This document shows, in pieces, positions 30,213-40,939 of a stretch of DNA of 49,594 nt. Source of the stretch: a virus; the IMG/VR virus record IMGVR_UViG_3300021587_000025; one strand, 5' to 3'. Under the pieces are notes generated by a model. The model saw nothing but the letters and a program-made list of their open reading frames with translations. It was not told the DNA's origin and did not search any database. Position numbers and translations under genes: made by a program. Position 1 is the first letter of the stretch, and each line of letters opens with the position of its first letter.

Positions 30213-31223
30213 CTAAAATATGACCTCTTTTATGTCAAGAATCCCTATTACCTTATCTCTATCTACAACTACAAGTTGGTCAACATCATTATCTCGCATT
30301 AACTGTGCAGCATCTGCGACTGTTTCATTTACATCAATCACAAGTGGATTCTTATTCATAAATTCAGATATCTTCCTCTGCATGTCGAATTCTTCTCTGC
30401 TTCCTATAAGTCTCTTCAAATCACCAGCAGTGAATACACCTTTCAATTGACCATCATCAGAACTAACTGCAACAGCCCCACCTTTATTTGCAATCATAAG
30501 AGCCAAGCAGTAATCTAAGCTATCAGTTTCCTTCACTACTAAATTTCTATTTATATTACGTGTAGCAACTGGTTTAAGCATTTCAATATCCATCTTGAAA
30601 GTCTCTGTTCCTTTATCAGTCAATGGATGATAAAACATCTGTGCTAATATATTGGGACGAATAGTAACTGCATCTGCACCTATCATATAGGATTTAATGA
30701 CATGCTGTGGATGACGAATGCTTGAAGACATGACCTTAGTCTCTTCACCATTCACCATGAACGAAGACTTAATAATCTCAAGATTCTCTATAGCATCGTG
30801 ACCTATATCATCAAGCCTACCTATTAATGGACAGATGTACGTAGATTTAACCGTAGCAGCTAATAAGGCTTGACTAACAGAATAAATCAAATGTAAATTT
30901 GTTTTGATACCAACTGAAAGTAATCGCTGCGTAAGTCTAAGCCCATCTTCTGAAAATGGTATCTTAAAGACCAATTCATTATCCTTAGTATCATCACTTA
31001 ACTTTACTGCATTATCAAACATCTCATCAACATTTGCTCCAGTTGCTTCAAGATGAATCTCACCATCAGACATTCTCTTTCTGATTTCTAATACCATCTG
31101 TTTATCATCAGACACACCAGCCCTTCGCTGAAATGTAGGATTAGTTGTAACTCCTTGGATTATACCCAAATTATAATAATATTCAATAGCATCAAGATCA
31201 ACAGAATCTAAAAATATCAACAT
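30213..31223 (-). CDS. Transaldolase/fructose-6-phosphate aldolase (TalC/FSA) domain fused to a CBS-domain pair
   Basis: 'IFLDS...GVTTNPT...VFKIP...PLIGRLDDIG...SSIRHP' (Schiff-base Lys in FKIP), followed by 'LKGVFTAGDL...MNKNPLVI...LVVVDRDKVIGIL' CBS repeats. Confidence 0.85.
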   Translation of the reverse strand: MLIFLDSVDLDAIEYYYNLGIIQGVTTNPTFQRRAGVSDDKQMVLEIRKRMSDGEIHLEATGANVDEMFDNAVKLSDDTKDNELVFKIPFSEDGLRLTQRLLSVGIKTNLHLIYSVSQALLAATVKSTYICPLIGRLDDIGHDAIENLEIIKSSFMVNGEETKVMSSSIRHPQHVIKSYMIGADAVTIRPNILAQMFYHPLTDKGTETFKMDIEMLKPVATRNINRNLVVKETDSLDYCLALMIANKGGAVAVSSDDGQLKGVFTAGDLKRLIGSREEFDMQRKISEFMNKNPLVIDVNETVADAAQLMRDNDVDQLVVVDRDKVIGILDIKEVIF

Positions 31224-31235
31224 TTTATCTTATTT

Positions 31236-32024
31236 CTAACAAGAATGTAATGCGTCCCAAACAGGTTTAACAGCCTGTATTAACTTCTCAAATTCTGAAA
31301 ATGATAATTGAGTAGCATTATCACAACGAGCATACATAGGACAAGGATGACATTCGATAAATAGACCATCAGCACCTGCAGCTATCATAGCTTTTGATAG
31401 AGTAGATGCATAATACTTCATGCCTCCTTGAAGAGAATGAGAGGGAATACCATATCTTCTAACTGTATGACCTGCATCGAAATAAACAGGAAAGCCAAAC
31501 TGTTTCAATTCATAGACACTACGAGGATCAACAACTAAATCATGATAGCCAAACATTGTGCCTCGCTCTGTAATCATAATCTTATCGTTTCCACATCTTC
31601 TGATTTTTTCTATAATATGTCCAACATCCAAAGGAGCTAAGAATTGCCCTTTCTTAATATTTATTGGTTTCTTAAATGATGCCATACGCTTTGTTAATTC
31701 TGTTTGCATACAAAGAAAAGCGGGTAACTGAAAAACATCTATAATCTTGACCAAATCAGTATCAAATTCATATAGATTATGAAAATCTGTAAGAAGCGTT
31801 AGATTGAATTCATCTTTTAGCTTCTCAAATATCCTAATGCTTTCCTCAATAGATAGACCTGAAAAATACTTAAGACTTGTTCGATTATCCTTCTTAAAGG
31901 AAGATTTGTATATTAAATTGAAATCATATTTCTCGCTCATCTTAACTAAGAATTCGGCTGTTTCTAATGAAATATTCTCAGACTCTAATACACAATTACC
32001 TGCAATTATATTTAATTTCTTCAT
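31236..32024 (-). CDS. kdsA: KdsA-like 3-deoxy-ulosonate-phosphate synthase (metal-dependent type) with altered substrate motifs; start likely 32024 rather than 32078
   Basis: IAGNCVLES, KSSFKKDNRTS, QLPAFLCMQT, NIKKGQF, TERG, FDAGH, FIECHP, CDN; ATGA overlap with the upstream stop supports the 32024 start. Confidence 0.85.
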   Translation of the reverse strand: MKKLNIIAGNCVLESENISLETAEFLVKMSEKYDFNLIYKSSFKKDNRTSLKYFSGLSIEESIRIFEKLKDEFNLTLLTDFHNLYEFDTDLVKIIDVFQLPAFLCMQTELTKRMASFKKPINIKKGQFLAPLDVGHIIEKIRRCGNDKIMITERGTMFGYHDLVVDPRSVYELKQFGFPVYFDAGHTVRRYGIPSHSLQGGMKYYASTLSKAMIAAGADGLFIECHPCPMYARCDNATQLSFSEFEKLIQAVKPVWDALHSC

Positions 32025-32590
32025 TTTCTTCCTACTATAAGATGATATGGGAAATGAAAACGACCTGGCTGATACCATTCATTTTCTATATAAAATCCAA
32101 TATCTGTCATCATCTTCTTTACTTCATCACCCTTTATATTAAAATGTTTATGAAATGCAGATGCACTACTCTTTTCCTCCTTTTCAGGATGAGATAAAAC
32201 TAATAGTCCTCCGGAATAAAGTGTATTATAAAATTTTTGACACGTTTCAAATATAGGTATATCTAAATGTTCAATAGTCTCGAAACTAACTATCACATCA
32301 AAATTTCCTAAAGGTGTTAAATCAGTATTTAAATCAAATCGCTGGAATGAAATATTCTCGGCAATCCAGTATTTCTTGGCGTAATCTATTGCTTCCTGTG
32401 AATAATCAACTCCTAAAACGGTATCTGCTTCTTTAGATAGAATATTTGAACCATACCCACATCCACACGCAGCATCTAAAACACTCTGGTCTCTGGAATA
32501 TCTTCGAGCAAATAAATATCTTTCAACATGTTTTATCTCTATATCTTCTATTCTTTCACCTATCTGACGTTCTCCATTCCATCCATCCAT
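32021..32590 (-). CDS. Class I SAM-dependent methyltransferase
   Basis: 'HVERY...VLDAACGCGYGS...LGVDYSQEAI...DVIVSFETIEHL'. Confidence 0.85.
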   Translation of the reverse strand: MDGWNGERQIGERIEDIEIKHVERYLFARRYSRDQSVLDAACGCGYGSNILSKEADTVLGVDYSQEAIDYAKKYWIAENISFQRFDLNTDLTPLGNFDVIVSFETIEHLDIPIFETCQKFYNTLYSGGLLVLSHPEKEEKSSASAFHKHFNIKGDEVKKMMTDIGFYIENEWYQPGRFHFPYHLIVGRK

Positions 32591-32615
32591 TTTTACTTCC
32601 TAATTGAGCTCTCAT

Positions 32616-33263
32616 CTACATCATACGTGAAATACATTCTGCTATCATTAATTCATCCATTGTATCAATATCCCAACCTTCAAGCATATCCACAATCTTG
32701 ATATAAGGATTAAATCCAATCCTTCTTTTATGCTTTTTAAATAAATCCTTTGAAAATATATAGAGTCCTGAAGTTTCTTGTATAACTGGTTTTAAATCCT
32801 GAGTTCTTGGCACGTTATCTAACTCATAATTCAAAGGTCTACCATCAAACCAACAAAAAGAATAAAGTTCAGTAGCTAAAAATGCAGAGTCGTAATCTCC
32901 TGTCTCTATTTTATTAATCATATCCTGAATAGTCTCGGACTTAATAAACGGAGAAGTGCAGCTTAGAAATACAATGTAATCACCGTCTATATCATCTATT
33001 ATACTTTCAAGAATATCATTAAATGTAATATTATCTCCATCAAGATAAGAAGGTCTTTCAATAAACAAATATTTTAAATCTGAATCAATGTAATTTCGAA
33101 TACGTTCCTGACTACAATACAGGATAGTTTCAGAAATACTATCAACTTGATTAAGAATAGATATCGCTTTACTTACGAGAGGAACACCATTAATTTCTCT
33201 TATGCTCTTAAACGGAACTCGCTTGCTATTCAGCCTAACCGTAACATAACCTATAAATTTCAT
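32616..33263 (-). CDS. CMP-ulosonate synthetase (NeuA/CMP-KDN-type cytidylyltransferase)
   Basis: 'VRLNSKRVPFKSI...LSCTSPF...ETSGLYIF...DIDTMDEL'; has the NeuA-type TSPF motif, not the KdsB QGDEP motif. Confidence 0.85.
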   Translation of the reverse strand: MKFIGYVTVRLNSKRVPFKSIREINGVPLVSKAISILNQVDSISETILYCSQERIRNYIDSDLKYLFIERPSYLDGDNITFNDILESIIDDIDGDYIVFLSCTSPFIKSETIQDMINKIETGDYDSAFLATELYSFCWFDGRPLNYELDNVPRTQDLKPVIQETSGLYIFSKDLFKKHKRRIGFNPYIKIVDMLEGWDIDTMDELMIAECISRMM

Positions 33264-33949
33264 ACTATGTCTTCTAATCTTTCTCGCTTGAATACTTCTA
33301 ATTTCCCACCAACTGTAGCATTGATAATCTCTCTACCATCTGCCTCAAAGGCTCTCTTACATATCTCATAACCATAAAAAATATCAGACCAGTCATCAAG
33401 AACTCCACGCCCACCTATATTATCAGTAATCGAGCCATCGAATCTATGCAGACCAGAATAGTCACAATCACAACCAAGAAGATACACTTTATCGAAGCCC
33501 ATGTAATAAGCAACTTGCAAGCATATATCAATTATGATTGTCTCACCAAGATAAGCACCACGAACTATGTCTTTAGAGATATCTCCTGCTGTCCATATCC
33601 TTCCCAATTCACGAATAATGTAAACCTCCGCTTTTTGCCTATCTCCCACATGCCTACCATTTCTAAGATATAAATCCGCAGCTCCAGATGATAAAAAGAG
33701 AATTGTATCTAAACTAAGAATATTTTGATAATGATTTTCCCAGACCATGTAATCTGAGACAGCGTAATATTTGCATTTTATTTTGAATTTCTCTAAACCT
33801 GTATAGAGTGTATTGACTCCAAAAATTATCTCGTCTTTTATTAAACTGAAATTTGTCTTATTCAGAGATGGACCAGTACCTACTATAAAACACCGTTCAC
33901 CTTTATGAATATCCTTAAATTTTTTAAGAGCTTCCCCTCGCTTCCACAT
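33260..33949 (-). CDS. DUF115/MptE-like (Maf/sialyltransferase-like) protein, putative CMP-ulosonate transferase
   Basis: 'FKDIHKGERCFIVGTGPSL...IFGVN...AYYMGFDKVYLLGCD'. Confidence 0.75.
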   Translation of the reverse strand: MWKRGEALKKFKDIHKGERCFIVGTGPSLNKTNFSLIKDEIIFGVNTLYTGLEKFKIKCKYYAVSDYMVWENHYQNILSLDTILFLSSGAADLYLRNGRHVGDRQKAEVYIIRELGRIWTAGDISKDIVRGAYLGETIIIDICLQVAYYMGFDKVYLLGCDCDYSGLHRFDGSITDNIGGRGVLDDWSDIFYGYEICKRAFEADGREIINATVGGKLEVFKRERLEDIV

Positions 33950-34256
33950 ACTCCTTCACAGAACTAAAAGCTCTGTCATCAATAATAACATGATAAACTG
34001 GCTTGTTTATATCGAGGATGTGATATTTAACTCCCCAATTCTTTAATTGTTGTCTTGTAATATTCCATACATCTTTGTGTCTGAAAACTCCTCTTGCTGT
34101 CCATAAAACAATTGTATTGCCTTCATCATATAACTTATTTATTAATCTTATAGCTTCAGGATTAGGTACAGCTTTATCAAAGTCCGGACCCAAATCCTCA
34201 AGTGTTATCACACCATCTATATCAATTGCAATTATTTTCTTCATAGATATCATCAA
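33924..34256 (-). CDS. Small capless HAD phosphatase (capsular/sugar-phosphate type)
   Basis: 'IAIDIDGVI' (DxD), 'WTARG', 'KPVYHVIIDDRA'. Confidence 0.85.
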   Translation of the reverse strand: MMISMKKIIAIDIDGVITLEDLGPDFDKAVPNPEAIRLINKLYDEGNTIVLWTARGVFRHKDVWNITRQQLKNWGVKYHILDINKPVYHVIIDDRAFSSVKEYVEARGSS

Positions 34257-34258
34257 AA

Positions 34259-34429
34259 TTAACTTAAACTGTAATAATACTCTCCGTAGTCATCTATTGC
34301 ATAATCATCTATATCCATTCGTACATAGGGCAAAGAAGACTTTTCAATAGGTGCATAAATTCCATCCTTTGTACGTTCAAGAAATTTTATATATACATTA
34401 TATTCTTCAAGATACTCTTCTTCCTTCAT
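34259..34429 (-). CDS. Small acidic Tyr-rich protein (56 aa, not in the ORF track)
   Basis: Manual translation MKEEEYLEEYNVYIKFLERTKDGIYAPIEKSSLPYVRMDIDDYAIDDYGEYYYSLS; stop lies 2 nt before the next ATG. Confidence 0.5.
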   Translation of the reverse strand: MKEEEYLEEYNVYIKFLERTKDGIYAPIEKSSLPYVRMDIDDYAIDDYGEYYYSLS

Positions 34430-34474
34430 GAGACGTCCATATATACACCTACAATCAATTTTTATATATCACCC

Positions 34475-34513
34475 AATATAAATGTATACCTAATCAAAAA
34501 TATTTCGTTCACG
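34475..34513. promoter_or_regulatory. Partial copy of the intergenic element, inverted relative to copy 1
   Basis: The reverse complement CGTGAACGAAATATTTTTGATTAGGTATACATTTATATT matches 18312..18350 (CGTGAACAAAATATTTTTACTTATCCTATACTTTATATT) at 28 of 39 positions ungapped. Confidence 0.45.
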
Positions 34514-34518
34514 CTTAT

Positions 34519-35244
34519 CTATTTGCGTCTCCTTAAATCTCTACGAATAATCTCTCGTACTGCTTCCTCTACACCAAACTTTGTATCATTTTTATTGAAC
34601 ACTATATCCTTAAATGGACATGTAACTGGTCTTGCATCATTTTCAGGACATACACCCAAGGTCACTCCTCGACACCAAATGTGTTCAAAAATTGTAGGAT
34701 AAGCGTCTAAGCAAAGTTTATACATTTTCTTAGCGAGTTCTCTCATTTCAGGAGCTGCACGTACACATAACCTAAGCATAAAGAAATTAATTAAACTTCG
34801 AACATTCATAGTAACTACATAACGAGTATGTAATGCCATTGGTAATACATATCTTGCTTCTTCTCTTTTGAATCCAATAACTCGGAGTTGTTTATACGCA
34901 TCATTTGCTCGCTCCATTGCTCTCTTATAAGCCTTAAGTGCATTTTTATCTCGCTTTATCTCACGAGGAATATAGTATCCAAAACTGTCTTCTTCATTGT
35001 ATCTTGTACTTCTTGCGGTATGAGAAGCTATCCTATGTTCTAATAACTCTCTACTCAATGCAACACTTATGTCCTCAATATCGAATGTGAAATAGATATG
35101 TTCAAGAACCGAACTATAATCATTATCAACAATCATCTTAGCTATTGACTGAGTATCTACTTTATCTGAAAAACCACTAACTCTTGCAGCATTAGCAATT
35201 AATTCCAAACCATCTTTAGTCACTCTCAATAAGTTTACCCTCAT
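34519..35244 (-). CDS. thyX: Flavin-dependent thymidylate synthase ThyX (divergent signature)
   Basis: 'SVLEHIYFTFDI', 'EHRIASHTARSTRY', 'EEARYVLP', 'MNVRSLINFFMLRLCVRAAPEMRELA'. Confidence 0.85.
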   Translation of the reverse strand: MRVNLLRVTKDGLELIANAARVSGFSDKVDTQSIAKMIVDNDYSSVLEHIYFTFDIEDISVALSRELLEHRIASHTARSTRYNEEDSFGYYIPREIKRDKNALKAYKRAMERANDAYKQLRVIGFKREEARYVLPMALHTRYVVTMNVRSLINFFMLRLCVRAAPEMRELAKKMYKLCLDAYPTIFEHIWCRGVTLGVCPENDARPVTCPFKDIVFNKNDTKFGVEEAVREIIRRDLRRRK

Positions 35245-35253
35245 ACTTTGATT

Positions 35254-36183
35254 TTATCCACCAACACTCATACAACATTTACACGGAAAATCTGGATCAG
35301 ATAGCTTCAAACCCGTTGCCTTATCAACAAAATCTTTACGCTTTTCTCCATTCCAAATTTCCTTAATTGATTGTTTCCTCAGATTACCCCAAACAGGCTT
35401 GCAAGAATACAACATACAGCAAGGCAGCACGTCCAAGTTATACAATACATGCAACCCACTAATAAATCGCCAACATGAAAATGAATGATATTTATCAATA
35501 GCACGATAGAAATTATTAGCAGCTTTCCATTCCTCCATTTTTACTTCACCTGCTCTATTATGAAATCGGTAATAATCAAGTTTCACATTTGCAGGATTAA
35601 GATTATTTTCTTTGAAAATCTTGACCCAGTATTCATGATAGTCTTCTTCCGTAAAATACACTAAACTTCCATCAATAGACGCTCCACTTCCTCTCAGAAT
35701 CGTAATCAACTGACCATCATTAATCATTAAATACTCAATTATGTTATTTAGCGTCTGAGCGTAATTTTTTCTTCTCATTAAAGTTTCATAGGTTTCCTTA
35801 TTTATTGCATGATGAGAAATCCATATATGAGATCTGCGAGATTTATCGTTTTTAGTAATCACTTCAACAAGTTGTTCTGCAAGTTTAGGAGTAAGTTTCA
35901 TTGCATTTGTAGAGACTTCAATACTACATTTAGGAAAATATTTGAATGCCAATTCTATGCGCTCAATCAATTTTTCATCAAGTGTTGGTTCATTCATCAG
36001 ATAAGGACAGAATTGACCATCGAAATTAGGCTGAGCTTCTTTTATTCGTTCTAAAACCAATACATAATCTTCATCACTCATCTTGCCCGGATACTTCTTC
36101 ATCCATGAATAGCTTGCAGGACAGAATACACAATTTCCATTACAACCAGAAACAGTTTGAACCTGAATTAAATTGAATTTCAT
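35254..36183 (-). CDS. Radical SAM enzyme with a SPASM/twitch domain
   Basis: CNGNCVFC (CxxxCxxC), YLMNEP, STNA, NRAG, and C-terminal 'CWR...LPCC...GNLRKQSIKEIWNG...CKCC'. Confidence 0.9.
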   Translation of the reverse strand: MKFNLIQVQTVSGCNGNCVFCPASYSWMKKYPGKMSDEDYVLVLERIKEAQPNFDGQFCPYLMNEPTLDEKLIERIELAFKYFPKCSIEVSTNAMKLTPKLAEQLVEVITKNDKSRRSHIWISHHAINKETYETLMRRKNYAQTLNNIIEYLMINDGQLITILRGSGASIDGSLVYFTEEDYHEYWVKIFKENNLNPANVKLDYYRFHNRAGEVKMEEWKAANNFYRAIDKYHSFSCWRFISGLHVLYNLDVLPCCMLYSCKPVWGNLRKQSIKEIWNGEKRKDFVDKATGLKLSDPDFPCKCCMSVGG

Positions 36184-36192
36184 CTTATCACC

Positions 36193-36990
36193 TCATAAAA
36201 TATAATCTGCTTTCTTTTCTAAGAACTTCTTTTTGTCCACATTCCAATTGTAATTATTGTATGCATAGAACTTACCATTAGCTATCTCAAACCGATCTAT
36301 CTTCATATAATAAACATCTGTAAAATCGAACGGTGAACGATTAGCTGGATGATTATACGAATAAGCCATTAGTTCTCTATCGAATCTAACTTTATAACCG
36401 AGCATCAATAATCTGTGTAAAAATTGAATATCTTCATAACCCCAACCTAAAGCATCATAGATTTCACTATATCCATTGAGAATCGACATCACCTCTAACG
36501 GATAAATACCGAATGAAAAAGTAAACATCGGATTATCTATTTTAAAATAACGACCAGTGCCACCAAAATTAGATTTCCATTTCTCATGATTTTGGCTCTG
36601 CCAGAGTTTCTCGCCAATTATAGCCCACTTCTCATACGTCTCCGAAAAATATTCGATATCTTCTGCAACTACATCCCAGAAATCCGGTCTGAATTCTAAT
36701 GAATCATCGCATCGTAGTATATAAGAACTCTCTGCATACAAAAGTGCAGTATTGAGTGCTTGAGAGAAATCTCGTTTTGTTTTGATTTCATTTTCCTTTA
36801 CTGGTGCATAAACAATTTGATAGTACTCATTTTTTCGTTCTTTAAGAAAAGCCTTAGTATCTTCATTGTAATTACTATCAATGACTATCAACTCTGCATC
36901 AGTAGAAGGATTTACAAATATTGGCTTTAAATATGATTTATCACGATTAGTAGCTATAATTACAGAATATTTAGGATTTGTTTTATTCAT
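36193..36990 (-). CDS. GT-A fold glycosyltransferase (GT2-like)
   Basis: 'YSVIIAT...IVID...ALNTALLYAESSYILRCDD...GWGYEDIQF'. Confidence 0.8.
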   Translation of the reverse strand: MNKTNPKYSVIIATNRDKSYLKPIFVNPSTDAELIVIDSNYNEDTKAFLKERKNEYYQIVYAPVKENEIKTKRDFSQALNTALLYAESSYILRCDDSLEFRPDFWDVVAEDIEYFSETYEKWAIIGEKLWQSQNHEKWKSNFGGTGRYFKIDNPMFTFSFGIYPLEVMSILNGYSEIYDALGWGYEDIQFLHRLLMLGYKVRFDRELMAYSYNHPANRSPFDFTDVYYMKIDRFEIANGKFYAYNNYNWNVDKKKFLEKKADYIL

Positions 36991-37291: not shown

Positions 37292-38583
37292 GTACAAATC
37301 TCCTTTCTTTTATCCCATTCGGGATAGTCTTCCTTTTTAAAATATTTAATTTTTGTTTCTAACATTATAGGATGATAACCCATATCTAAATGACAGTAAG
37401 GATTTTCAGGTTCAGGATCAGCAGTTGCCTTCCATATCCAATATAACGGAGAACCTTGTGGTCTTTTAAAAGCTTTAATTATGAATCTACCATTAAGAAG
37501 TTTCTGATTGAGTTCGGGCTGGTCGGTATCCGAATAGAAGAATAATTCGTGATAATCAGGACGAGCAGTACCGGTCTTCACTTTCCCTGTCCATATCGCA
37601 CCAAGATAGCCAAAAGCATGAATTGTAGCACCCACATCTCCAGGAAACAGCCAGTACGATTTATCTTTTATGATATACTTATCAATAATCTCTGCTCCCT
37701 TTTCATCAATAAGATATTCTTTTGTTTTTTTGATTCTCATATTTGAAGGTTCTTCTATTTGCATCCTCTCTTTACTTAAAAACAATCCTTTTTGAACGTT
37801 TGCATGACCCTTTTGCTCTTTATTCAGTTCACCTAATAATACTCGAATATATGATTCCATATCACTTTCAACTAATATCCCCTGAATCAACTTATCTATT
37901 CCTTTCAAATGCCATCGGATATCACAATGTAAACTATGACCTATTATAATCTCTTTAAATGATTTCTTATGTTTAATAAAAGCATCTCTATCTTCAGGCT
38001 TTACGCCTCGAATATGAAATTGAGCCAGTGCATAACCCTCTCGATAATCAACATAATACTTAGAAGGTAAAGGTTTATTTTTATAATCTCCTTCCTTTAT
38101 AAGTTGTTTATATTCCTCAGGAGTAAGTTTTTGTGCCTTTGCTCTGATATCAGCTTTCTCAAAAGAAATATCCATATATCTCTCAGGATTAATTAATATA
38201 TTCTGAACTCCTCGCGGCAGTTTTATTGGAGATGGATTCTTAAATAACTCTTTCTTTTTGATTCTATATGCATAAAGAGGAAACTCCCAACCCCATCGCT
38301 TGAATTGTTCATCTGTAACTCTATGCTCTTTTTGCAACTTATCGAATTCTTTTTTACTTTTAATAACAAAAGGCTTATCTAACCATACATACCCATAAGC
38401 ATAATGCAATCCAAATATTAGAAGCTTCTCATTATCAATATTAAAGTTTCTATCCTTTAGAATAAGTGATTTATTTCCCTCCCATATAGCCCTTGCATGA
38501 CCTTCCGGCAAATAGAGTCCTCTACCCTTTACACCTCTTGCACGTAATTCTAAATCAATAATCTTTAATAACTTATCTTTCAT
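37288..38583 (-). CDS. ASCH/PUA-like domain fused to a LigD 3'-phosphoesterase-like domain
   Basis: N-terminal 'GLYLPEGHARAIWEGNKSLILK...AYGYVWL...WEFPLYAY' (ASCH-like); 'LAQFHIRG...HSLHCDIRW' resembles the LigD PE motif QxH...HxDxR; 'HELFF...LLNGRFII'. Confidence 0.65.
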   Translation of the reverse strand: MKDKLLKIIDLELRARGVKGRGLYLPEGHARAIWEGNKSLILKDRNFNIDNEKLLIFGLHYAYGYVWLDKPFVIKSKKEFDKLQKEHRVTDEQFKRWGWEFPLYAYRIKKKELFKNPSPIKLPRGVQNILINPERYMDISFEKADIRAKAQKLTPEEYKQLIKEGDYKNKPLPSKYYVDYREGYALAQFHIRGVKPEDRDAFIKHKKSFKEIIIGHSLHCDIRWHLKGIDKLIQGILVESDMESYIRVLLGELNKEQKGHANVQKGLFLSKERMQIEEPSNMRIKKTKEYLIDEKGAEIIDKYIIKDKSYWLFPGDVGATIHAFGYLGAIWTGKVKTGTARPDYHELFFYSDTDQPELNQKLLNGRFIIKAFKRPQGSPLYWIWKATADPEPENPYCHLDMGYHPIMLETKIKYFKKEDYPEWDKRKEICT

Positions 38584-40939
38584 TCAAATATTTCCTCAAT
38601 TCCCAAAGTTGATTATCACTCAATGCTTTAACTTTCTCAGCTACTCGCTTCAATTCTTTAGGTAGTTTTTCTCCTCTTATGTGAAGCAAATCTTCAATAC
38701 TCATACGCTTGGGTTCAAGAAGACTTAAACGTTCTAATACCTGGAGTGAATCACTAACATTCTTTTCGGGTACTAATTCAAGCGGTCTCCCAATATAAAA
38801 CGAATAGCGAGGATAATCGGGATGCTCTTTATTTTCATACTTTATAACTTCTTCTGCAGCTATCCTGAGGATGTCTCCAATTTCTCCTTGAATATTTGTA
38901 TTATCAGTTTTGGTCATCACCATAACCCAACGACCATTCTTATCAAGAATCTCTTTACCTCTGTATAGCTGTTTGCCTACCAAAACACCCGCAGAATCAT
39001 ACCATGATTTTTGAGACATAGATGCTAAGACTTTAGCATATTCTTTAGGGATATCTATCCCTAAAAGATAGTTCCAAGTTTTCTTTGCTCCTTTAACAAG
39101 TTTTTTATCCAAGATAACACAATCCAATTCTCTAAAAATTTTTGCTTTTGCCCACGACTTATTCTGTGGAACTTGATATACACCATCGAGGGTTTTAATC
39201 ATTACACCCTCTGCTAAATACTTAACAAACTTACCATGTCTCCTCAATCCTTTATCTTTAGTAATTATATTCCAAGCTCTATGGATACCCTTAAAGTCAT
39301 TACCACGCACATAAAATGCAGGATGACCTGCCTCAATTACATGGCTCGGTCGTTCAATGATGATATGTTCACTATCTTTTATTTTATTTAAATATTTAAG
39401 CCTCTCAGATAATGGTAAATTCCTTAAATCTTTACCTTTATAAAACAAAACATCAAAAACAAATATATAAGCAAAAGGAGCAAGTTTCTCAGCATCTTCT
39501 TTAGAATTCAATATGCTATTCGCATCAGTGCGATGAATAACTTCATTTCCCACCATCGCTATAAATTCAGCATCCAATACAGTTCCATCAGGTAAATTAG
39601 TTTCAAGCTCTCGCACAATTTCAGGAAGACGAGATGATACATTAGGAGACTTATGCTTTACATCTGCAGGATCAACAAAAACATAACCTTTACCCTTTAG
39701 TTTTAAAGCAGTTACACGTAGACCATCAGCTTTAGAATCAATCAATAAATCTTTCTTATCCCAACCAAGATGTTTTAAATCACTTTCTATTAAATCTATA
39801 TCACAACGATAAGCAGGTTTACTTTTTGAAAAATAAGTAGCAACTAATGCCTTTTTGAGAATTCTATCACGTTTTCTATCCCACTCCTCTTTTTCCTCTT
39901 TAGTTTTTGGTGGTGAAGACTTAATTAAACCTTTTTTCTTGCATCTCCAATATAATTTCCAAAATGAAGAATTATCATGCTTTTCAGGTATTATAAAACC
40001 AACACTGCGGAGAGTGTCTATACATTTAGCAAAATATTTCTCAACATCTTCAAGAGTCCAATCGCCCCATTTTTCTCCCTTTAATAAACGTGGAAAGGCT
40101 GAATTTCCGAGGTAGCGGGCATCCGCCATAATTTCTCTCCATCGAGTCTCTGGATGTTTGAGATCGTAATCCACACCCGTACTCCTAAATTCCTCTAAAT
40201 GTAATTTTGACTTAATTTGATCACCTTTAATTAACTTCCCATCTCTTGTAAAAGTAAGAACCATGCCTTTCTTTGCAAATAAAATAGGTATATCCCAATC
40301 TTTTCTCAATCGTTTCAATACCTCATCTTTACGACGTAATAAATCTAATCTAAAATTAGTAAGCGTAATTGATAATAATCCTTTATGTTCTTTACAAGCT
40401 AAAATCCTATCAGCAAAATTTATAAAATTGATCTTATGATCTGGTTTACTATACGAACCAATACCCGCTATAAGATGATGTGGAGGAAGAGAAATATCTT
40501 TTATTAACTGCTGTCCTAAATAAGGTGGTAACTCAGGAAGAATAGCAACTCTGAATTGTGGAAAGCGTAAACCTATCATCGGTTCATGAGGTGCGATTGG
40601 AGTCTTTTCCGGTAATATCTTGAGATTACCGACTTTAAAATCATTGCCCATAACTTTAATAACTTTTCTTAACTGCTCATCAGGAATATAATGCTTAACT
40701 CCTAAAGTAGAATAAATAGGAACATCATTATCTGCATAATATTTCCATTGAGACCACTCATCTGGATCAATATCGCAAACTACTACTGCATTAATACCCT
40801 CTATTTTCTTAGTAGGCTGAATAAGTAAATGAGTATCTTGATAATCTACCTCTATACAACTATGATCTCTATTAGATGCTAAAATTCCGTGAAACTTAAC
40901 TTTTAGATTACTCATTAAATTTATTGGATAAATATACAC
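38573..40939 (-). CDS. Multidomain protein: degenerate metallo-beta-lactamase-like N-terminus, a small helical domain, and an ATP-dependent DNA ligase (adenylation + OB); likely start 40915
   Basis: Ligase motifs I SKADGLR, III LDAEF, IIIa VFDVL, IV EGVMIK, V WAKAK. N-terminus 'KVKFHG...HSCIEV...LLIQP' is MBL-like but lacks HxHxDH. Confidence 0.8.
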   Translation of the reverse strand: MYIYPINLMSNLKVKFHGILASNRDHSCIEVDYQDTHLLIQPTKKIEGINAVVVCDIDPDEWSQWKYYADNDVPIYSTLGVKHYIPDEQLRKVIKVMGNDFKVGNLKILPEKTPIAPHEPMIGLRFPQFRVAILPELPPYLGQQLIKDISLPPHHLIAGIGSYSKPDHKINFINFADRILACKEHKGLLSITLTNFRLDLLRRKDEVLKRLRKDWDIPILFAKKGMVLTFTRDGKLIKGDQIKSKLHLEEFRSTGVDYDLKHPETRWREIMADARYLGNSAFPRLLKGEKWGDWTLEDVEKYFAKCIDTLRSVGFIIPEKHDNSSFWKLYWRCKKKGLIKSSPPKTKEEKEEWDRKRDRILKKALVATYFSKSKPAYRCDIDLIESDLKHLGWDKKDLLIDSKADGLRVTALKLKGKGYVFVDPADVKHKSPNVSSRLPEIVRELETNLPDGTVLDAEFIAMVGNEVIHRTDANSILNSKEDAEKLAPFAYIFVFDVLFYKGKDLRNLPLSERLKYLNKIKDSEHIIIERPSHVIEAGHPAFYVRGNDFKGIHRAWNIITKDKGLRRHGKFVKYLAEGVMIKTLDGVYQVPQNKSWAKAKIFRELDCVILDKKLVKGAKKTWNYLLGIDIPKEYAKVLASMSQKSWYDSAGVLVGKQLYRGKEILDKNGRWVMVMTKTDNTNIQGEIGDILRIAAEEVIKYENKEHPDYPRYSFYIGRPLELVPEKNVSDSLQVLERLSLLEPKRMSIEDLLHIRGEKLPKELKRVAEKVKALSDNQLWELRKYLNER

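Follow-up and report, generated by a model that had tools for sequence, protein, structure and literature searches.

A transaldolase-CBS fusion in a phage glycan cassette, a candidate replacement for the arabinose-5-phosphate isomerase KdsD

Tal-CBS and the closest described enzymes

For most Gram-negative bacteria, making Kdo (3-deoxy-D-manno-octulosonate) is essential, and KdsD is regarded as both the universal first step of the pathway and a drug target. KdsD and the related KpsF and GutQ combine a catalytic SIS domain with a C-terminal pair of CBS domains. In a 49,594-nucleotide stretch of tailed-phage DNA (IMG/VR record IMGVR_UViG_3300021587_000025; hereafter the window), the gene beside kdsA encodes another protein, Tal-CBS, which occupies the same operon slot and carries a CBS pair in the same order. 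The SIS domain, however, is wholly absent and an unrelated TIM barrel stands in its place, so the chemistry of Tal-CBS cannot be ene-diol isomerisation of the SIS type. The mutually exclusive distribution of KdsD and the fusion nevertheless implies the same pathway role. That Tal-CBS takes the place of KdsD is well supported by comparative genomics, and the adjacent KdsA probably receives its arabinose-5-phosphate (A5P) from this protein, a non-orthologous substitute for the SIS isomerase. New here is a phage-borne Tal-CBS gene that is under purifying selection and lies in a complete Kdo-type cassette of the head-gene module.

The nearest PDB folds found by Foldseek are short, decameric TalC-type transaldolases, namely T. 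acidophilum TacTal (3s0c), T. maritima TM0295 (1vpx) and B. subtilis Tal (3r8r), with target-normalised TM scores of 0.85-0.94 and 35-39% identity over residues 1-216. These enzymes share with Tal-CBS the Schiff-base lysine, Asp6, Asn28, Glu60, Asn108 and the phosphate site Arg135/Ser167/Arg169. Unlike them, Tal-CBS has Glu/His/Leu in place of Glu/Thr/Phe, Cys for Ser130, Ser for Ala166 and a CBS pair; it belongs to a Kdo-biosynthesis rather than a pentose-phosphate context and coexists with a canonical transaldolase. E. coli FsaA (1l6w) resembles Tal-CBS in fold and predicted Schiff-base chemistry, and is the sole family member shown to make or cleave A5P (PMC6900487). It is, however, only about 24% identical to Tal-CBS, which has Glu for Gln59, His for Thr109, Leu for Tyr131 and Cys for Ala129, and it has neither a CBS pair nor linkage to kdsA. 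Cyanophage TalC is likewise phage-borne and belongs to the same Pfam family, yet it is canonical, consists of the barrel only and is read as a pentose-phosphate gene. Tal-CBS, in contrast, is fused to CBS domains, sits in a Kdo-type cassette and falls into a clade marked by active-site His, Cys and Leu (the His/Cys/Leu clade).

Pfam assigns TAL_FSA (PF00923) to residues 3-231 of Tal-CBS (E 1e-38), together with two CBS domains (E 1e-18). The AlphaFold2 model, based on an alignment of 31 relatives, predicts a barrel at residues 1-216 and a CBS pair at about 222-336, with a mean predicted local distance difference test score of 93.2. The barrel belongs to the PF00923 transaldolase/FSA superfamily by its architecture, by TM scores of about 0.9 and by a Schiff-base Lys87 on strand 4 that corresponds to TacTal Lys86. 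It falls outside the fsa_talC_mipB equivalog TIGR00875, scoring 171.9 bits against a cut-off of 245.95 and having Glu instead of Gln59 and Leu instead of Tyr131. Canonical TalC (EC 2.2.1.2) is defined by a Glu60/Thr110/Phe132 triad and Ser130, where Tal-CBS has Glu59/His111/Leu133 and Cys131. On sequence grounds, Tal-CBS is a transaldolase/FSA superfamily member that lacks the triad by which transaldolase and FSA are each defined.

The C-terminal half points to KdsD. Its CBS pair aligns with positions 168-267 of the KdsD/KpsF/GutQ model TIGR00393 (E 1.4e-12), the second-best CBS match in NCBIfam, and the N-terminal SIS part of that model has no counterpart in the protein. The pair also matches PDB 4o9k (E 1.7e-7), the CBS pair of an A5P isomerase, presumably KdsD crystallised with cytidine monophosphate (CMP)-Kdo. 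A tblastn search with a genuine Bacteroidota KdsD detected no SIS domain in the window; the query matched through its CBS pair alone (its residues 189-289 to window positions 30237-30539, 29% identity, E 1e-6). A Rosetta-stone search for longer proteins that join Tal-CBS to further enzymes of the Kdo pathway returned none, which counts as weak evidence. The sole other fusion seen is that of P0112, a 1.46-kb contig in which a His/Cys/Leu barrel is followed by a C-terminal Methyltransf_11 domain instead of the CBS pair.

Active-site residues were read from the alignment to 3s0c. Tal-CBS retains Asp6, Asn28, Asn109 and Arg136, as well as Glu59 (in IHLEA; Glu60 of 3s0c) and Lys87 (in FKIP; the Schiff-base Lys86). 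It has His111 (in NLHLIY) at the position of Thr110, and Cys131 and Leu133 (in CPLIGR) at those of Ser130 and Phe132. The original prediction, made from the DNA letters, had placed a TalC/FSA barrel with a KdsD-type CBS pair next to kdsA. It had also reported no SIS-domain isomerase in the window and singled out the Glu of IHLEA, the Leu of CPLIGR and the His of NLHLIY. The domain searches, the structural model, the alignment and the NF003543 score of the adjacent KdsA (287 bits, cut-off 242) agree with it throughout; the strand of the gene, which it left unstated, is minus.

These substitutions hold across the family. Every one of 31 fused relatives, and of the 67 clade members examined, has His111, Cys131 and Leu133, while 48 canonical TalC proteins all have Thr, Ser and Phe at the equivalent positions. 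Four positions are conserved within each group yet differ between the two: Thr to His111, Ser to Cys131, Phe to Leu133 and Ala to Ser167. Position 57 is Ser in canonical TalC and His, Gln, Tyr or Met in the clade, and position 28 is Asn in a phage/metagenome subtype and Thr in a Bacteroidota subtype. In a maximum-likelihood barrel tree of 108 sequences, 59 His/Cys/Leu proteins form a single clade (support 0.994) with no canonical member within it. The clade includes members with and without the CBS pair, and because the CBS-less forms (about 215 residues) nest inside fused lineages, the pair seems to have been lost several times. Members of the kdsA-linked clade were recognised by D6, E59, K87, N109, H111, C131, L133 and R136 plus kdsA within 3 kb; the phage protein, with the signature DNHEKNHCLR and a kdsA gene that ends 12 nt upstream, is one of them.

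According to PMC13259622, which cites Stellmacher et al., a Gln/Glu-Thr-Tyr/Phe triad holds the catalytic water, and swapping it interconverts aldolase and transaldolase activity. The same source states that Asp6, Asn28 and Ala129 touch the donor, and that Asn28 and Ala129 shape donor scope. Since the triad decides between aldolase and transaldolase, the His/Cys/Leu family would carry a third version of the fold's deciding residues, with the other class-I machinery intact. Judging from the alignments, His111, Cys131 and Leu133 are not chance substitutions, and the apparent neofunctionalisation of this TalC family counts in support of the proposed role. No description of the Tal-CBS family or of a KdsD-independent A5P route was found in the literature. 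Databases list these proteins as 'transaldolase' or 'CBS domain protein', names that are misleading.

Linkage to kdsA and exclusion of KdsD

Genomic context ties the clade to Kdo synthesis. The locus set comprises 110 Tal-bearing loci, 62 with the His/Cys/Leu signature and 48 with canonical Tal. KdsA lies within 3 kb in 53 of the 62 signature loci versus one of the 48 canonical loci, and four of the nine signature loci without a nearby KdsA are truncated by a contig end. The linkage recurs in all six independent metagenomic context groups and in 15 of 18 viral loci. A KdsA-type gene and a cytidylyltransferase stand beside Tal in every metagenomic context looked up, often joined by an MptE-like or KpsC/S-type transferase, a HAD phosphatase, O-methyltransferases and a Wzt ABC transporter. 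In Bacteroidota-type loci, the neighbours are core genes of lipopolysaccharide (LPS) synthesis, with KdsA in 26 of 32 loci, KdnA/KdnB homologues in 12, KdsB in nine and WaaA in seven; example operons read waaA-kdsA-TalCBS and kdsA-TalCBS-kdnA-kdnB-kdsB. One Bacteroidota orthologue, at locus L037, comes from Plebeiibacterium marinum. With a Bacteroidota KdsD as query, no SIS match was found within 8-10 kb of any of the 110 loci.

Two of these contexts hint at further sugars. In 12 of the 32 Bacteroidota-type loci (L017, L020, L022, L024, L026, L028, L033, L037, L038 and L040-L042), homologues of a DegT aminotransferase and an iron-containing alcohol dehydrogenase adjoin kdsA-TalCBS. This pair is presumably KdnA/KdnB, which make 8-amino-Kdo (Kdo8N) in Shewanella, and its presence suggests Kdo8N in the LPS of the carriers. 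In four marine metagenome contigs (L007-L010), a 2-hydroxyacid dehydrogenase gene invariably comes after an unfused His/Cys/Leu Tal. These contigs also hold two DAHP_synth_1-type genes, one of them weakly NeuB-like, two cytidylyltransferases and a GT29 sialyltransferase-like gene, and may encode a second, different ulosonate pathway.

An even sample of 301 Bacteroidota genomes contains KdsA in 222, KdsD above cut-off in 210 and a full-length fusion in four. All four fusion genomes have KdsA and WaaA and lack KdsD, and they make up half of the eight genomes with KdsA but without KdsD. About 214 genomes encode a KdsD-type protein, and the fusion is absent from all of them (Fisher estimate about 7e-7). 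No KdsD above cut-off was found in eight fusion genomes, whose best TIGR00393 match is the CBS pair of the fusion itself. In five fusion genomes searched for KpsF/KdsD, none reached the cut-off, and the best TIGR00393 match in each is the CBS half of the fusion itself. The SIS proteins of fusion genomes are limited to GlmS and weak matches of at most 38 bits. Linkage to kdsA and mutual exclusion with kdsD, the two patterns that the original prediction had proposed to look for, are thus both seen well beyond the window, so the refuting outcome it had named, a lack of kdsA linkage in other genomes, did not occur.

The carriers also have a use for the product. Fusion genomes hold a single above-cut-off canonical KdsA, which adjoins the fusion, together with the Kdo transferase WaaA, and therefore need A5P. 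Given this linkage in LPS-making carriers, the aldose phosphate that Tal-CBS would supply must be A5P. Moreover, seven of the eight fusion genomes have a separate canonical Tal of about 220 residues, which scores 190-300 bits on PF00923 versus 109-126 for the fusion. The retention of this canonical transaldolase indicates that the fusion is not the pentose-phosphate enzyme. A worry that 91 of the 301 genomes lack KdsD, which might undermine the exclusion, was dismissed, as 79 of the 301 lack KdsA too. These 79 genomes likewise lack KdsD and represent a sizeable lineage apparently without a Kdo pathway.

Proposed route to A5P and competing explanations

Tal-CBS would act as the first, CBS-regulated enzyme of a Kdo-type pathway, built on a neofunctionalised TalC-family barrel. 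The class-I aldolase apparatus is retained (the Lys87 imine, Asp6, Glu59 and the phosphate site Arg136/Ser168/Arg170), and the clade-wide changes are confined to the catalytic-water triad and the donor pocket, so the Lys87 imine is most likely still used. Imine chemistry is also suggested by A5P itself, which as a C1 aldimine would be isosteric with fructose-6-phosphate minus C1. In the rebuilt site, a Glu59-His111 pair would take over from the Glu-water-Thr relay and Leu133 would free up space, and Cys131 would leave a donor pocket that is smaller, less polar and suited to a C2 unit. A5P would then be formed from an enzyme-bound C2 enamine, at the level of glycolaldehyde, and glyceraldehyde-3-phosphate. 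That such A5P chemistry is feasible in this fold follows from E. coli FsaA, which, as the original prediction had noted for A5P formation, interconverts A5P with glyceraldehyde-3-phosphate and glycolaldehyde (Km 0.65 mM, kcat 3.6 per s; PMC6900487).

The C2 unit may come from another aldose phosphate such as ribose-5-phosphate (R5P), giving a net conversion of R5P to A5P, a 2-epimerisation by retro-aldol cleavage and re-addition. A pentose-phosphate donor is preferred because a glycolaldehyde source does not travel with the gene, but this specific mechanism is put forward tentatively. With its likeness to KdsD, the CBS pair suggests that the committed step is controlled in the same way, by end product or nucleotide; its ligand is probably a pathway end product or else a nucleotide, as has been proposed for KdsD. 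The full picture would be a new lysine-imine A5P synthase that draws C2 from pentose phosphate. It would let hundreds of bacterial species enter the Kdo pathway without KdsD, and large phages would have taken it up along with KdsA, a phosphatase, a CMP-synthetase, a methyltransferase and a transferase, in order to produce a methylated Kdo-type sugar while their heads assemble. Taken as a whole, that picture is conceivable rather than probable.

Several points weigh against the proposal. A KdsD could lie elsewhere in the phage genome, since the record of the nearest viral relative (L093) is rated 37% complete at 66.5 kb, a figure that also marks the phage as large. Five viral records of relatives, one of them about 90% complete at 173 kb, contain no KdsD. 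Among the eight Bacteroidota genomes with KdsA but no KdsD, four (G081, G083, G155 and G287) lack the fusion as well and have an ordinary Tal elsewhere; they have either another A5P source or assembly gaps, and they weaken the argument from absence. Transaldolase and FSA are strictly D-threo specific, and cleavage of R5P, which is erythro at C2-C3, has no known precedent in the fold, so relaxed stereocontrol at C2 would be needed. His111 lies on the catalytic-water side, and a second base on the opposite face is not obvious. Lastly, the phage KdsA scores 272 bits on TIGR01362, below the cut-off of 314, and the phage cytidylyltransferase is nearer PseF than KdsB, so the phage product may be a Kdo analogue.

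This last point also speaks for an explanation in which phage-type cassettes make a different aldose phosphate, which a KdsA-like synthase would turn into a non-Kdo 3-deoxy-ulosonic acid that is later O-methylated. The KdsA variants KDNRS, Met at A. aeolicus Arg106 and HxxR[KR]YG fall at positions lining the A5P site, and the cassettes hold methyltransferases and MptE-like or GT29 transferases, not WaaA. The same KdsA variant, however, is the sole above-cut-off KdsA of LPS-making Bacteroidota with WaaA and also occurs in kdsA-kdsB loci without an adjacent Tal, so it marks a KdsA subfamily and not a new substrate. The Tal active-site signature, too, is the same in the phage and Bacteroidota types except at positions 28 and 57. 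The 'unusual aldose' that the original prediction allowed for is accordingly unlikely in the Bacteroidota type, with its sole KdsA and its WaaA, and keeps a small probability for phage-type cassettes. The other product of that prediction was A5P made by a true, FSA-like aldolase from free glycolaldehyde and glyceraldehyde-3-phosphate. It has the reversible FsaA reaction (PMC6900487) as a direct model, and all aldolase residues are retained in the clade. The altered donor pocket (Cys for Ser130 throughout, Thr for Asn28 in the Bacteroidota subtype) is in keeping with a donor that is smaller than dihydroxyacetone, and protonation and release of the enamine, the task of Tyr131 in FSA, could fall to a Glu-His pair. 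Against this, the FSA hallmarks Gln59 and Tyr131 are absent, and a glycolaldehyde-generating gene is conserved in none of the LPS-core operons or phage cassettes looked at. Glycolaldehyde is not a central metabolite but a minor, toxic bacterial by-product, unlikely to sustain Kdo flux at the level of LPS synthesis. Non-orthologous A5P supply, the part of the predicted aldol route backed by linkage, exclusion, the CBS pair and the rebuilt triad, is supported, while its reliance on free glycolaldehyde is doubtful, the source gene not being conserved beside the fusion.

A more direct analogue of KdsD would be a Schiff-base-independent aldose-ketose isomerase that converts ribulose-5-phosphate (Ru5P) to A5P, in which Glu59 and His111 play the parts of Glu165 and His95 in triosephosphate isomerase. 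A new His beside a conserved Glu and Lys in a TIM barrel does recall the constellation of that enzyme, and an isomerase would explain why the operon slot of KdsD is taken and KdsD excluded while needing only a central metabolite. Yet Lys87, Asp6 and the other aldolase machinery are invariant and only four positions are changed, so that more has been preserved than an isomerase would require, and a lysine imine on Ru5P would be expected to lead to a dead-end Heyns product; such an isomerase is improbable. Least credible is an ordinary transaldolase serving as an auxiliary metabolic gene that boosts pentose-phosphate flux, with the kdsA adjacency incidental. It has a precedent in talC, which is widespread in cyanophages, and the best matches among the isolate phages of INPHARED are indeed cyanophage TalC proteins with 35-40% identity over the barrel only. 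INPHARED, however, contains no Tal-CBS fusion, and no record in it covers at least 80% of the protein. The separation of the His/Cys/Leu clade from canonical TalC, the low fsa_talC score, the contrast in kdsA linkage and the separate canonical Tal of carrier genomes all oppose this reading, which is very hard to sustain. The preferred reading is still a non-orthologous A5P supplier acting through a lysine imine.

The phage cassette and its wider meaning

The window is part of a tailed phage with all genes on the minus strand, and it encodes a large terminase, portal, prohead protease, cement protein, major capsid protein and tape measure. Tal-CBS closes a six-gene cassette between portal and protease that reads, from its upstream end, HAD phosphatase, MptE-like/WaaZ-like protein, cytidylyltransferase, S-adenosylmethionine (SAM) methyltransferase, KdsA and Tal-CBS (Table 1). 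The nearest relative of the phage Tal-CBS, on the IMG/VR contig L093, is 96% identical in protein and 94% in nucleotide sequence, and the ratio of nonsynonymous to synonymous substitution rates between the two is 0.07, indicating purifying selection. The same cassette is found in related phage contigs (L011, L093 and L114), directly upstream of cement and capsid genes.

Table 1. Features of the Tal-CBS gene and its cassette in the window (ORF, open reading frame)
Feature	Position	Strand	Basis
Tal-CBS gene, 336 aa, intact single ORF	30213..31223	minus	ORF call, Pfam, AlphaFold2
TalC-type (beta/alpha)8 barrel, residues 1-216	30576..31223	minus	PF00923 E 1e-38; 3s0c alignment; Foldseek
CBS pair, KdsD/KpsF type, residues ~222-336	30216..30560	minus	Pfam CBS x2; TIGR00393; KdsD tblastn
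Glu59 codon of Tal-CBS	31047-31049
Lys87 (Schiff-base) codon of Tal-CBS	30963-30965
His111 codon of Tal-CBS	30891-30893
Cys131 codon of Tal-CBS	30831-30833
Leu133 codon of Tal-CBS	30825-30827
Further key codons of Tal-CBS: Asp6, Arg136
KdsA (Kdo-8-phosphate synthase), metal-dependent type with Cys ligand	31236..32078	minus	NF003543; alignment to A. aeolicus 1fwn
SAM-dependent methyltransferase	32021..32590	minus	Pfam Methyltransf_25/31/23/11
Cytidylyltransferase (CTP_transf_3; PseF/KdsB-like), presumed CMP-ulosonate synthetase	32616..33263	minus	Profile matches
MptE-like protein (DUF115; Maf/WaaZ-like), presumed ulosonate transferase	33260..33949	minus	PF01973 E 1.5e-13; weak WaaZ match
Small capless HAD-type phosphatase, 110 aa, DIDGV motif, candidate Kdo-8-P phosphatase	33924..34256	minus	NF046079, TIGR01662

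The KdsA, cytidylyltransferase and MptE-like protein of the cassette share 58-65% identity with their counterparts in cellular glycan clusters that include Wzt transporters, so the whole module is common to cells and phages. Against its homologues in L001, L006 and L011, which are cellular and viral cassettes, the cytidylyltransferase falls in the same range of 58-65%, and the methyltransferase is 52-84% identical to those in the related cassettes L006, L011 and L093. The MptE-like gene is conserved in L001, L006, L011 and L114, and the HAD phosphatase, whose translation shows the DxDxV, T and DD motifs, has homologues that adjoin Tal in many loci. With Tal-CBS, the six-gene cassette would be self-sufficient from central metabolites.

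KdsA shows features of its own. The listed ORF probably starts too early, since homologues have 260-262 residues and align from Met19 (32024); the stretch concerned is 32024-32078, and a start at Met19 removes the 58-nt overlap with the methyltransferase ORF. The phage protein carries the subfamily motifs KDNRT/S, LCMQT and HxVRRYG. More broadly, the KdsA partners of CBS-fused Tal (loci L001-L044) have KDNRS for KANRS, Met for A. aeolicus Arg106 (in LCMQT), HxxR[KR]YG for HSVQxPG, and ALCD, while KdsA of KdsD-bearing Bacteroidota keeps KANRT/LCRQT. The same motif subfamily is present without an adjacent Tal in L113. The KDNRS and Arg-to-Met variant was considered as a sign of a new substrate and rejected as decisive, as the subfamily also occurs without an adjacent Tal and the sole KdsA of LPS-making fusion genomes has it.

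The surroundings of the cassette add a few observations. Positions 30213-36990 comprise the Kdo-type cassette plus an upstream radical-SAM/SPASM gene and a GT2-like gene. At 38573-40939, between the portal region and the cassette, lies a 788-residue ORF of which only residues 397-611 resemble an ATP-dependent DNA ligase (phrog_114, E 1e-12). In L011 (JAAFKH010000085.1), labelled as part of a 'Heimdallarchaeota' metagenome-assembled genome, phage cement and capsid genes lie downstream of the cassette found here; the likeliest explanation is a viral contig that was binned into an archaeal genome.

If the proposed role is correct, Tal-CBS would supply a 'missing enzyme' to the genome-scale models of many Bacteroidota and other lineages. 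The transaldolase/FSA family, which biocatalysis groups engineer, would gain a third catalytic solution, Glu/His/Leu, and CBS-mediated control would prove to be attached to the pathway position and not to the catalytic fold. The phage copy, in turn, suggests that viruses mobilise a complete, self-sufficient Kdo-type pathway among their head genes, and raises the question of whether its target is the virion or a host glycan.

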